Assembly: GCA_964016885.1 (NCBI GenBank)
Contig: OZ024743.1
Location: 292,082,001-292,146,000 of the forward strand
Length of the DNA stretch: 64,000 nt
Reading direction: 5' to 3'
From: Eledone cirrhosa
Taxonomy: Eukaryota
Each line of letters begins with the position of its first letter. Positions within the stretch are counted from its first letter, which is position 1. A program made the position numbers and the translations under genes. Below are positions 57,961 through 64,000 of this stretch, piece after piece. The notes beneath the pieces are model-generated. The model worked only from the letters and a program-made list of their open reading frames with translations. It was not told the origin of the DNA and searched no databases.

Positions 57961-59094
57961 TATAGTTTGTCATGCATGTGATAACCTACACCATCATATA
58001 TCAAACTGATCGACATTATTATGTATAACATGCTTGACAACACCAGATTTGAAATATAACGGATGATTGACACAGAATCAAGTATGATTGTTAATCTCCT
58101 ATTTTAATTTCCATATGAGATGTATATCATTGTAAGTTTTAATAATCCTTCCGACTATCTCAATCTCGCTTCCTTTTGCTGTGGTGAAATCCTTGAAACA
58201 CGCTACAACTATTTCTGTCAAATCTTCGTATTTCTATTAATAGCACTATTACTGTCTCTCACATAAACTTCTCTACAATTTTATTTTTATTCTTCTTTAG
58301 TTTATAGCAGTCCACTGCTGAAGTTATTCTCCTTCTTTCACTTTCATTAAAGTTAAATAATTATTCAATGATTTCCCGGTACAACTGACTATGTAACGTT
58401 GTCACACTTATTTAACGGATACCTGACGCTCGGCAAACCTGACATTTTAACAACTTGGCTTATGCTAGAAGGTTGTCATTCTAAATTGAAACATTCTCCC
58501 CAGTCCCGCAAGTCTTTGCTTAGTATTTATTGTATAACACCCGCTACCAGAAACTGGACAAGGTTGATATAGTAGTAATGCAATTTACTCTGCAACCATT
58601 GTTGGTGTTAATGTTCTGTATTAGAGAAAACCAGGAAAATTGTCCACTAACAGATAACTCCATTCTTCCTGATATATCTTAGCCCTTGATCCGTCACAAG
58701 AATATTAATGCTATTTATTTACTCACTTTTGAATCAAATTCATTTATTAAATTAGGATATTTCAGTAAAAAAAAAGGCATTGATCAGTGAATGTGTCTGC
58801 TTTGGTTTCCATATTAGTAACATCCTTAAATTGTACAAACTAAAAGATGATCGTGAGCTTATAGAGTTTATAAAGATTCATGTTTCGATGTTGCGTTGAG
58901 TCAATAGATAACGAGTTTTGTGCTTGGCCATGCTACTTCTTCTTCTTCTTCTTGAAAATGTATATGACTGCGTCATATACCTTTTCAAGGTAGACAAATC
59001 AAGAATATACCTTTTGTTGCTGCCTCGCTTTTCGAAGACCTGCCGCGAAATCTGCACTCTTCATTAGCAAGCTTGGACTCTCCAGGCATTTCTA

Positions 59095-60760
59095 TCAAAA
59101 CACTAATCATAGACTTCATCGGGGAGGCTTAATAAGGAGATCCCTCTGTAATTGGAAGAATCTCTCTTGTCTCCCTTTTTGAAAATTGGGATTATCACTC
59201 CCGATTGCGATTGCTTGGGTGCCATTCCATGGATCCAAGCCACCCGGCTCACATGAGTCAGCCAGAAAATATCTTCTCTATTTAAGCCTTTTAATATTTC
59301 GAGCCGGATTTCATCTTTCTCAGTGAACTTGCCATATTTGAACAGTTTAACTACACCTGTGACCACAGCCTCTGAGATGCACATGTGCATCATGAGTATT
59401 CAGCTCTCTGAAGAGAGGAGAACCCCAGGCGCGTTCCTGATAGCAGGTGTGGATGAGGGCTTCTTATTACGAAGTCGGGGATGGTCCTCGAGAACACTTT
59501 AATGATTAATCTATAGTCGGATTCCAGCTTAACCCCAAAGTCCACCGATGATTTAAATTTGGATGCCTTTACTGTCGTTGAGATTCTTACTGCCTGTACC
59601 GCAAGTGCAATAATTAGGAGGGCTTATTTCAAAGCCAAGTTTGTAGGCCTCCTTCTTTGCTCAATTGGCATCTTTGACCTCTTGATTGAACCAAGTTCTT
59701 TTCCTGCTATCCGGCGTCAGACAAAGTCTCTTTCACCTGCAGCATTTTACAGCTGAAGCAGAAACATCTGCGCTCAACAATCTCCACTCATTTTGCACAC
59801 GGAGTTCTCTGAATTTGGATGCAATAGTATCTTCATACATGGTTATGATTTCCTTATCCACCTGTGCTTCCCACATTATTCTAAAGGTTACCTGTCAGTT
59901 TTGTGGGATTCTTTGGATTTAGGCTGTCTCGAGTTGCAGATATGTAGATGGCGATCAGTTGACAGTTCAGTCCCGCTTTTAACTCAGACACCCAGCACAG
60001 AATCATTTAGATCAGAGACAATAATAAAATCAATTATTGATCTCTGTCCCTGATTCACATTATACCATGTATATTTATGGGTGTCTCTATGCTGGAGGAA
60101 GGTGTTCATAATATAGAGTCCATTGCTAGAACAGAAGTATTGTACGGCCTATCCATTCGTATGCAACTCGGAGCCACCATTCCTTCCAATTACTCCATTC
60201 AATGCCAGGTGGTCAGTGCAAATATGTGCATTGAAGTCTTATATCAAGATATATTACTCAGTCTTAACTACATCTAACGCTGCAGTGACTTCATCAAAGG
60301 AGGGCTTGTATTCGGATACCTTGTTTGGTGCATAAACTTGCACAACATATAGACATCTATCTTTCAACCCATGCTTCAAGAGGAAAATCTCCCCTCCTAA
60401 CGGGATCCAGTCCATAACACATTCTGACAGCCAGGGCTTGCGAGTTTCCCCACTCCCACGTGTGCAGTCATTTCTGGTACCACACCTGAATAGTGGTACT
60501 TCCATCCTCCATTCAAATCTACAGTAACAGAGCCATGGCACTTTGTTGAGGAAACCCCGACTATATCTAGATGGTAGCATCTTGCCTCCTCCACTAGTTC
60601 CTGCTCATAACCTATCAGGCTTGTGATGTTTCAGATCTCATTATTTGCTCCCTTCTTGACCCTCTTTGGGATCTCGGGTTACGCAATCTTTGTGCGTCCA
60701 TCCCACGCCTCTCAGGACAGGTCACAGGCACATCACCAGTTTTTGCCGCAGGAAATGAAA
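59095..60760 (-). pseudogene. Degraded RTE-clade LINE (endonuclease and RT N-terminus)
   Basis: YHLDIVGVSSTK..GGWKYHYSGV, VVQVYAPN, IIPIFKKGDKRDSSNYRGISLLSLP. Confidence 0.85.
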
Positions 60761-60940
60761 ACCGCAATATAGTTTTCGAACATGCCTTTCTACATATGCC
60801 TGAACACGTCTCTTATTAACATACGCGAAGTCTAGGCATCCTTTACCCAACTTGTCAACATTTTTCCGGACAACTATAAGCCAAACACATACTATGAATC
60901 GGCCGCCGCGTGCATGTTCTCCAATTTTATTTAAATTTTA

Positions 60941-61095
60941 AGTAATATTAGTATTAAATTCCAGTGCATCTGCATTCACTTACATTGCATTCCAAAGATT
61001 TTCCTGGTGTAAGTGAAGAGCCAAGAGAAAGATTACATGGAGATTAAAATGGAAGCAATAGAAGAGAGATACATGGTGAAATGAGATATAAATGG
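60941..61095 (+). pseudogene. Chapaev/CMC-like transposase C-terminal remnant
   Basis: SNISIKFQCICIHLHCIPKI..GVSEEPRERLHGD..IEERY resembles NMSIKLHFLHSHLD.FP..GAVSEEQGERFHQDI..MEERYQG (recalled consensus). Confidence 0.45.
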
Positions 61096-61471
61096 TGGTA
61101 TATTACTACTGGAATCTTCAGGTGAACTGTTATGGTAAGTCATACTCTCGGATATTCTACAAAAGAAGCTTTATAAGTTGAATAATTAATTACTTATTTT
61201 CTTCATTGTTTTGCTTTTACTTACCATTATTATAGATTTTTATGCAATAAGACATTTATATTCAAATAATCTGATTCATAAAAATGTAGCCGTTTTAAAA
61301 TAATATATAAATGTCATTAGTAATTTCGATTCCAAACTCTAGCTTAATGAATTAAAGCTTATATAATTAAACCAATCCCATTTTAGTAATCAGTGGCCCA
61401 ATTATTATAGAATAAAGATGTACGTGGAATTCCTAATTTCAGCGAAGATTTGGATACATCGATTTGGATAC

Positions 61472-61650
61472 TACGACGTTCGACTGAAAGATTCATAGAC
61501 TGAAAAGTTCATAGGCTGACCGAGATACTCTCAGGAAATTATCAAATGAGGTTTCTTTTTCAACATAGTCCCTGGAAAGAAACAACGCAGTTTTGAATAA
61601 GAAGAGTTGAAATCAATACACGCAAGATTTCACAGCCCTAGCATCACTGT
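61472..61650 (+). mobile_element. Mariner-type MITE, one TIR
   Basis: tacgacgttcgactgaaa..aagttcataggctgaccgagatactctca, homologous to 54386-54540. Confidence 0.6.
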
Positions 61651-61942
61651 TTGTTGACCGAATTGGAAAAGGTGATTGTATATTCGAAATGTCCAGCCCA
61701 AATATACGGAAGAATATTTCGAATCTTCTGCTTGTTTGAAAAAACATTTTTGGTAGTCAATAACATCCTCTATAGTTGATAATCTCTTGTTCATGGTTTA
61801 AGAATACCTAATTTTGTTAACATTCGACAGTGAGATTTAACATTTAGAAAATGTATGCGTGTATACATAAAAATTTACCAAAATCAAGAGGCGGTATTGA
61901 AAACGTAGAGGATTACTGCAGTATATGTAGTGTGGTAAATAA

Positions 61943-62003
<61 letters not shown>

Positions 62004-62054
62004 GGAAAGTAATAAATCGGAGAATAGACCGTTAAAACATGTTTATTTAAAACA

Positions 62055-62095
62055 GCATCTACGTACGTTTCGCCCAGTTGGGCTTCGCAAGGGCA
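62055..62095 (-). ncRNA. Degenerate hammerhead-like motif
   Basis: CTTGCGA-A-GCCC-AACT-GGGC-GAAA-CGTACG-TA; core damaged, palindromic stem III. Confidence 0.35.
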
Positions 62096-62306
62096 TAAAT
62101 AACCAAAAGTTACTTTCCCACGTGCTTACGCTCTGCTAACTCTCTAGCCCATTAAATATTAACACTTCGAATATTTAATACTGCCGGCACTAGTATCGAG
62201 CACCTTTGGCATACGCTACTTGACAAATAACAATGTGTATCACCTATCCTCCCTTTTTTTTCTCTCTCTCTTGATACGTAAATACTATATATATATATAT
62301 ATATAT

Positions 62307-62987
62307 AAGTAAGTTAATTTTATAATTTTCTTATCTTACGTCTCTTATATTATTGTTCTGCAACCCCATGCATTGAACCACAATGTTATTAAGACAAAAC
62401 CTATATATTTGCTGGCATCGATATGCATTTGTATGTATATATATGTTACTAGATATAAATTCTTTATTATTATCTCCAAAATATTTGTCGAGCAATACTG
62501 GCCATGACTGCTGCTACGGTAGCAGGCTAGCCGCTGTCTTATTAACAACCCACTTTCCACCGATTGACCTCGATGTCACGTGTTCGATTCTTTTTGAATT
62601 TGCCACAGACACAGAGGCAGTGATTTTCTCAATAGCTAGGAAGTAAGTCCACGCTTTGCTATTTCCTATTCACTGATTTATTTTTAATAAGCTTCCAGTG
62701 TCCTCGCTTTGCCTGGAACTTATATGAGAATTGACTTTCCTGATGACGGGATGTTTCTCCACACCTTCTTCGGAAGATGTATCTACTCCATTCCAGAAAC
62801 TAATTAGTTGGAAGTGATATTTTAGAAAGTAAGTTAATTTGATAATTTTCTTATCTTACGTCTCTTATATTATTGTTCTGCAACCCCATGCATTGAACCA
62901 CAATGTTATTAAGACAAAACCTATATATTTGCTGGCATCGATATGCATTTGTATGTATATATATGTTACTAGATATAAATTCTTTAT

Positions 62988-62990
<3 letters not shown>
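62307..62990 (+). mobile_element. Non-coding HHR element with 164-bp terminal redundancy (520-nt period), retrozyme-like
   Basis: 62307-62470 = 62827-62990 (one visible mismatch); (TA)n on both sides; contains HHR. Confidence 0.8.
62734..62815 (+). ncRNA. Type I hammerhead with extended stem II
   Basis: ACTTTC-CTGATGA-C-GGGATG-[insert with CTTC-TTCG-GAAG hairpin]-CATTCC-A-GAAA-CTAATTAG-TT-GGAAGT; GUU site at 62809. Confidence 0.75.
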
Positions 62991-63025
<35 letters not shown>

Positions 63026-63104
63026 AGGTCCAAACACAAGGGAGACAAACTCACACTCTCACTGCCTCCATCTCTCCGGCTCTCGGCATCTCTCACTATT
63101 ATAA

Positions 63105-63460
63105 GTGAATGTGAGCCCACGTGCTGGCCACTCCGCGGCCCCGATGGACAGAATAAAGTAGGCGTTTACCCGGAAGTAGTTCACGGAGACGCACTGGAAG
63201 AGTCATTCCAGGTCGCGAGGCTTACACTGGCGGGAAGCCAGCTCCAGGTCGACGGTGGTAAGTAGGGAGGTGGTCCTTGGGTCAATGACACCAGAAATAT
63301 CCACCGCCACGGGCTCAAACGTAGAACAAACCATATTTGGAGAGTTTACCTGCCTCAGCCCGAAGTGCAGCGGAGCCTAGTTTAGTCGCAGAATGCACCA
63401 GCTTGCCACTGGAGAAAGCGTCGCTACATGTGTCATCCAAGATGGGGTGTTTACCACTGT
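63105..63460 (-). pseudogene. CRE-clade restriction-like endonuclease fragment
   Basis: GKHPILDDTCSDAFSSGKLVHSATKLGSAALRAEAGKLSKY..FEPVAVDISGV aligns with 39560-39740. Confidence 0.75.
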
Positions 63461-64000
63461 ACATATATGCATATATATACATATGGCAGAACGGAATCCC
63501 TGTTGATGAAATGAATCCACTATTCGATCATGGAATACCACGAGCATGCCAGTTACGTAAGTTGGATAACTAATTTCGGATTTCATAGAAACACTTTAAA
63601 CGCATGTCGTTTGATTTTTCCAGGTGTATCTTTTTAACCTGTTAGTTCTTTCGTTACTTTGGTATTGCCTACCGCAATGTTGAATTTGTCAAGTTATTTA
63701 AACGTATGTTATTACTCTCAGGACCCTACCCTTATTGAATGCTTTGCTAACTCATTCCTATTGTAGGTCGACTTTGCTTTCCCACAGCCAAAGCTTCGAT
63801 TTTACTCAGCTTCCACTTGTATATATATATATTTATATATATATATGTATTACAAAGTGAGGTTTTTTACAAAATGGAAAATAAGCGAGGTGTCCTACAC
63901 GAGTGAAAGTATAAAGGAAAAAATATGAAATCGAAAATGCAACAGGAGTCTTATTTTTAAAAACATATATATATTTATTTGGTTCCTTTACCGGTTCGCA

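Follow-up and report, generated by a model that had tools for sequence, protein, structure and literature searches.

In the 64,000-nt stretch of Eledone cirrhosa DNA analysed here (the window), a 684-nt element lies between two (TA)n tracts, and the locus raises the question of what kind of element this is and which machinery copied it. The initial annotation, made from the letters alone, had offered two readings: a young non-autonomous retrozyme, or a partial tandem pseudo-LTR of a Penelope-like element (PLE). Circular RNAs are expressed from animal non-LTR retrozymes, for whose mobilisation PLEs have been named as a strong candidate (PMC7229834, Cervera and de la Pena 2020). In a preprint that favours local tandem growth, a PLE origin is argued from co-occurrence and pLTR homology (Li, Clavereau and Pollet, 10.64898/2026.07.22.740005). 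Both works leave open the mobilising enzyme of animal retrozymes and the role of the circles in transposition.

The element and its family

With unit positions (u1–u520) counted from window 62307, the element consists of a 520-nt unit followed by a 164-nt partial second unit (Table 1). The direct repeats at 62307–62470 and 62827–62990 are 164 nt long, lie 520 nt apart and differ at a single position (T/G at u15), which confirms the 1.3 units of a 520-nt monomer first read between the (TA)n tracts. Both repeats carry a minority G at u108. The initial finding of no credible ORF also holds: the longest ATG frame of the unit has 87 aa and no Pfam match, and the frame is not conserved, since an ATG frame of at least 80 aa is present in one of 161 distinct units. 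The whole unit folds better than 100 of 100 shuffled sequences (z -3.3), and the tail hairpins were obtained from the consensus fold of 10 variants, with weak covariation (2/32 pairs).

Table 1. Features of the 684-nt element and its flanks (window coordinates)
Feature	Position	Strand	Remarks
Left (TA)n tract	62286..62306 (about)	.	5'-truncation junction of the insertion
520-nt unit, u1–u520	62307..62826	+	36% GC; without credible ORF
Type I hammerhead motif	62734..62815	+	predicted cut after U62809 (u503)
Hammerhead stem I	62734–39 / 62810–15	+	
Hammerhead core CUGAUGA	62740–46	+	
Extended domain II	62747..62795	+	unpaired C62747; stem II 62748–53/62789–94; extra A62795
Distal hairpin of domain II	62761–80	+	C(UUCG)G-capped
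GAAA	62796–99	+	
Helix III	62799..62808	+	palindromic (ACUAAUUAGU), 10 nt
Second, partial unit, u1–u164	62827..62990	+	terminal redundancy
Proximal fixed family end, u44	62870	+	internal in the window copy; 60/134 3' ends at u44–47
120-nt "tail"	62871..62990	+	contains two predicted, conserved hairpins; runs as far as u164, the distal fixed end
Right (TA)n tract	62991..63024 (about)	.	target; target-site duplication unreadable inside the tract

The window's own genome (3.0 Gb) was searched for relatives. Searching with the unit gave 2,750 candidates, and the best of the 40 that were scored are 97–99% identical to it and lie on many contigs, as expected of the young, multi-copy, non-autonomous hammerhead retroelement first proposed. 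The exact 18-nt core occurs 12,847 times and the full-core pattern at least 10,239 times, with 0 for the reversed controls, so a single-copy local duplication is excluded; none of the copies examined is joined to an ORF, and the unit is thus not always attached to a PLE ORF. Units are short, tandem and dispersed, from monomers to multimers; they are 500–609 nt long, run head to tail, and fall into subfamilies 66–99% alike, that of the window having 174 exact 30-nt ribozyme matches. Among sequencing runs, none of RNA was listed as containing the sequence, and three contig runs of one sample (kind not on record) contain family variants only; neither result has a bearing on expression.

The window element is a real, young copy of an animal non-LTR retrozyme, and the class is a known one. 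Like the metazoan members described so far, the family consists of tandem units, in monomers to multimers, that lack an ORF, are low in GC and contain a type I hammerhead each, and it co-occurs with PLEs. Its unit length (520–560 nt here) compares with 170–400 nt in PMC7229834 and falls within the 51–972 bp of preprint 10.64898/2026.07.22.740005. The ribozymes of the metazoan non-LTR retrozymes are canonical, whereas that found here is of the PLE-type minimal form with a 49-nt domain II; and the link to PLEs, which in the retrozyme preprint is pLTR homology, is here the geometry of insertion. What the family adds to the class is the PLE link by insertion signature, the long tail, the two-armed multimers and the form of the ribozyme. 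The literature searched describes no retrozyme whose fixed ends are paired, whose tail has 120 nt or whose ribozyme takes such a form; repeat catalogues may list the family.

An extended hammerhead motif

The motif had been described as one intact hammerhead, and all the parts described are present; "intact" needs qualifying, however, by the extra C and A round stem II, the GUU triplet, which is fixed across the family, the palindromic 10-nt helix III, and a minimum free energy (MFE) structure of the isolated motif that is not a hammerhead. The isolated motif folds no better than shuffled sequences, and no Rfam hammerhead family matches at E ≤ 1 over window 58000–64000 or at E ≤ 10 over the motif itself.

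Covariation was assessed in 26 diverse variants (32 clusters were formed from 268 motifs, and six that were truncated or rearranged were left out). In these, 94.8% of the cells of stem II and the distal hairpin are paired, as against 40–48% in slid controls. Eight of the 14 pairs have changes on both sides, and none of 500 shuffles attains the covariation score, although this shuffle count is not a probability because the variant sequences are related. RNAalifold recovers both helices unprompted. The C after CUGANGA is invariant (26/26) and the G10.1-C11.1 pair is present in 24/26; the extra A before GAAA is likewise fixed, with 12,847 cores having CA and 97 a non-A base at this position. The UUCG loop is not general among the variants. 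The extra hairpin of stem II that had been noticed at first is therefore a real and conserved extension, but its supposed branched form is ruled out by the covariation and RNAalifold, which give instead a linear succession of stem, pyrimidine-rich internal loop and hairpin. The conserved internal loop of this extended domain II occupies the expected place of loop 2. One of its bases, u454 (window 62760), is T, A, C or G among young copies. Of 36 informative comparisons within insertions it is discordant in 17, far more often than the linked markers u393 and u426, and T is present in every discordant pair; perhaps it is a copying hotspot or a modified base.

The minimal hammerheads of PLEs show poor cleavage in vitro and are presumed to be active as dimers (PMC4209133, Cervera and de la Pena 2014). 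The motif shares with them the base added between A9 and G10.1, the G10.1-C11.1 pair, the palindromic helix III and a short stem I; found here only are the fixed A between C11.1 and G12, the GUU triplet, the 10-nt length of the palindrome, and the distal hairpin beyond a conserved internal loop. By the dimer model of PMC4209133, the palindrome is predicted to pair two ribozymes into a dimer; its duplex has -9.0 kcal/mol, and its invariance among the variants follows from the way the sequences were selected. Our literature search for extended stem II in type I hammerheads returned nothing relevant. Cleavage persists in an axolotl retrozyme whose stem II has a U-U mismatch at its base (PMC7229834), which makes activity of the present motif plausible; among nine predicted Xenopus retrozymes, cleavage was reported for one and not for the other eight (10.64898/2026.07.22.740005), a result counted against the reading favoured below.

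Insertion at TA tracts and the probable connection to PLEs

We analysed 85 young insertion clusters with 134 3' ends; four segmental duplicates (two of them 161/161 pairs) were dropped and arms were counted in 80 insertions. The 3' ends fall on two sites 120 nt apart, 60/134 at u44–47 and 63/134 at u159–167, with 11/134 elsewhere. Nearly all of them adjoin TA tracts, and the 5' ends are scattered. Two head-to-head arms exist in 46 of the 80 insertions, a few short second arms having been missed; 39 of the 46 pair u44 with u164, seven have one irregular end, and the combination 44/44 occurs in none. Single-armed young insertions split 16/16/2, and the same two fixed ends are found in a sister subfamily. 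Pure fold-back synthesis of the inverted arm is contradicted by arms that are not nested (e.g. L012).

Partial tandems, 5' truncation, an inverted 5' arm, a tail on one arm and a (TA)n target are thus all present. Published descriptions of PLEs include partial tandems, a truncated arm in inverted orientation and a one-ended tail of 30–40 bp (PMC8557442, PMC3846280). Purified PLE protein nicks AT-rich DNA and extends both strands, and in vitro it starts at two internal RNA sites, which define the tail (PMC11167929). Since the two fixed ends and the mirror-image arms in TA tracts are as in PLEs, the family is likely copied by a PLE enzyme, and PLE-type mobilisation can be held with high confidence. 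In these terms u44 would be the first start of reverse transcription, and u164 is the end used by the window copy. Because its right end is this distal start site, the 164-nt overlap follows directly and is no arbitrary overrun. The left boundary had been placed about 18 nt past the cleavage site, and in unit terms it is the 18th base 3' of the cut, a position that the arm ends do not show to be meaningful. Three arms stop 2–4 nt from the cut, and on the second pass 15 of 47 arms (hand count) stop within 31 nt before it, a share within the 19–43% of the next intervals; the left boundary was therefore dropped as evidence of run-off at the cut site.

EN+ PLEs of the Neptune/Nematis type (Craig et al. 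2021, PMC8557442; Arkhipova et al. 2013, PMC3846280; Frangieh et al. 2024, PMC11167929) also have partial tandems, 5' truncation, an inverted 5' arm, a one-ended tail, a microsatellite target (as in Neptune/Naiad) and a hammerhead upstream of the ends. They differ in carrying an RT/GIY-YIG ORF, absent here, and the five local families have no sequence likeness to the unit. The tail is 120 nt here, 30–40 bp in published PLEs and about 39–68 nt in the local ORF-bearing families. Non-autonomous Chlamys elements such as MRC1 (PMC8557442) are likewise ORF-less and of PLE type, with pLTRs and multicopy head-to-tail insertions; however, their 3' end resembles autonomous families and the hammerhead is mostly absent. 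It is scarcely credible that the family is instead a satellite or MITE-like repeat that spread at the DNA level through recombination and bears a vestigial ribozyme-like motif. The missing Rfam match and the poor folding of the isolated motif would suit such a repeat, but its polar truncation (fixed 3' ends with random 5' truncation) largely refutes it, and both the inverted arms built at each insertion and the covarying stems round a conserved core speak against it.

A GIY-YIG search of the genome gave 10,597 candidates, of which 150 were scored, and 50 loci were examined. The candidates inspected have frames in which RT is combined with a C-terminal GIY-YIG and a CxxxxCxxC linker, and they are therefore of the Neptune/Nematis type. 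The ORF-bearing families A, C, E and F have two TA-adjoining ends about 68, 48, 45–50 and 39 nt apart, respectively, and in family F one of each end is found in six of six complete two-armed copies. Family F is young: many of its copies keep an open frame of 777 aa, and these are 97–100% identical. As seen at L319:1284-6200, in this abundant PLE the 777-aa RT/GIY-YIG frame follows a stretch that lies in a different frame, the 3' UTR is rich in microsatellites, the hammerhead is a U3-A8 variant and the tail has 39 nt.

Among the five local families compared (A, B, C, E and F), sequence likeness pointed to no partner: for the 181 nt after the cut site, 93–285 of 300 shuffles score as high. No 120-nt tail was found among the ORF-bearing families examined. 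The ORFs beside copies at L048, L069, L113, L116, L118 and L308 are independent neighbours, and same-strand core spacings of 2–5 kb, considered as partner elements, are local duplications. Neither the 97 core variants without the extra A nor the GUA/GUC variants (140, as against 47 in the control) include a separate ORF-linked family. These results bear on the proposal that an unsampled autonomous PLE has the unit as its pseudo-LTR and that the window copy is a truncated partial tandem of this pseudo-LTR. Every insertion hallmark is PLE-like (PMC8557442, PMC3846280), and the cores inspected number a few hundred out of over 10,000, the GIY-YIG candidates scored 150 out of 10,597; nevertheless we judge the proposal very unlikely, as units run head to tail at 500–609 nt and never with an ORF, no ORF was continuous with the unit among the cores inspected, none of the 51 distinct 5' flanks other than TA has a match to PLE proteins, and the ORFs near copies are set apart by TA tracts or unrelated DNA. 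The two readings offered at first are in fact not alternatives: the element is an ORF-less retrozyme with the insertion geometry of a PLE.

Several neighbouring elements were recognized. Another hammerhead family, unrelated to the first and with 1,777 candidates, has a two-armed insertion at window 62000–62285 that adjoins the same TA tract as the 520-nt element. Its core is of the U3-A8 type, its palindrome is ACGUACGU and its two fixed ends lie about 165 nt from each other, and long tails are thus not unique to the 520-nt family; no linked ORF was found in the 16 matching loci examined, one unrelated neighbour apart. The right edge of the window (63840–64000, minus strand), continuing into L113:835-4700, holds the 3' end of a Neptune/Nematis-type PLE of family A, which is 5'-truncated and frameshifted and has a degenerate hammerhead. 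An older unit copy, 90% identical, lies in the TA tract at the 5' junction of this PLE (L113:4858-5424). At L028:1200-2190, the 3' end of a family E PLE is joined 5' to 5' to a unit copy by three bases, with no TA tract at the junction and a snap-back palindrome on each side; this single case, not counted as proof, is possibly one event primed on two different RNAs. Short frames at window 59100–60600 (minus strand), read by eye, resemble fragments of a LINE-type endonuclease and reverse transcriptase.

Circular or linear template

Arms cross the cut site seamlessly in 110 of 124 cases, 30 of them twice. Segments differ by 1.1–1.5% within one insertion, as against 2.4% from locus to locus. Of 107 informative lineage-marker comparisons within insertions, 30 are discordant, which was counted against a single template; between insertions the figure is 11,877 of 13,558. 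When seven rearranged or array loci are set aside, rare variants common to different units are found at 8 of 8,828 positions (7/49 loci), where parallel mutation would give 0.17, and those that both arms carry in the same register at 20 of 6,880 positions (13/32 loci). The same-register excess is not significant (region-stratified P = 0.08), and leans towards some templates having been linear.

In 26 sister arrays, chosen as top matches and hence biased to long young arrays, 24 markers are fixed across all units and four are private; subset variants do not recur at other loci save for one marker, which is explained by a neighbouring insertion. One sister insertion has 10 + 4 full units on its two arms, all sharing one variant, with five unshared substitutions and T-runs of 14–62 that differ unit by unit. 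These T-run differences may also have arisen after insertion or in assembly, and gene conversion may have shaped such arrays as well. A further insertion (L290+L339) has 9 + 2 full units on two arms and zero substitutions in the 11. At L293 (G000:C4:311539300-311544800) each of the two arms alternates between two types of unit, as would be expected of a heterodimeric circle used as template or of a duplication spanning two units. Patterns such as those of the sister arrays are what several rounds of copying on one circle or circular dimer would be expected to produce, and they favour such copying short of proving it.

An alternative, again with PLE-type mobilisation, is that read-through RNAs transcribed from tandem master loci serve as templates in linear and mostly uncut form; long uniform arrays would then arise by unequal crossing-over or conversion once inserted, and any circles would be only a by-product. 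In vitro the PLE protein works predominantly on uncut RNA, and insertion persists when the ribozyme is mutated (PMC11167929); local amplification is the model of preprint 10.64898/2026.07.22.740005. The same-register excess, the block duplications in arrays L287, L289 and L112, and the bounded arm length in the young subfamily (at most 878 nt, L112 left out) were also counted on this side and against the circle. Linear templates sit less easily with variants that every unit carries on both arms and that hardly any mutation has followed (L290+L339), with array subset variants that do not recur elsewhere (the one exception being explained), and with a ribozyme fold kept by compensatory change across subfamilies 66–99% alike. 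On balance we regard such linear copying as rather unlikely, and judging from these sequence patterns a circular RNA template in at least some events as fairly probable.

We accordingly favour, with fair confidence, a reading of the window element as an ORF-less, 5'-truncated, single-armed copy, mobilised in trans by the RT/GIY-YIG protein of a Neptune/Nematis-type PLE, probably from circular RNA in some events. Tandem copies would be transcribed, paired ribozymes would cut the RNA after u503, and a host ligase would close the monomer into a circle. The window copy has one ribozyme and so could not by itself release a unit-length RNA. A protein dimer would then bind hairpins in u30–u165 and nick both strands of a TA tract, one cDNA being primed at u44 and the other at u164. 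Both cDNAs would be extended back across the ribozyme junction and become joined head to head at their 5' ends. The window copy would be the u164-primed cDNA of 684 nt, its second arm lost or never made. In a more specific form, for which the chances seem slightly less than even, a pair of PLE enzymes would copy one ribozyme circle by rolling circle from two start sites, for up to ten or more turns per arm, laying head-to-head arms into TA tracts and leaving a direct record in the genome; the hammerhead, with the C and A round stem II, the conserved internal loop and the distal hairpin, would be a form tuned to remain uncleaved before dimerisation or protein binding.

In short, the family gives insertion-level evidence for the mobilisation of an animal retrozyme by PLEs, and its very young two-armed multimers separate circular from linear models of copying. 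The same genome holds a young ORF-bearing PLE family suitable for in vitro tests. The 120-nt tail suggests that the spacing of the start sites would follow the RNA, instead of being fixed at 30–40 nt.
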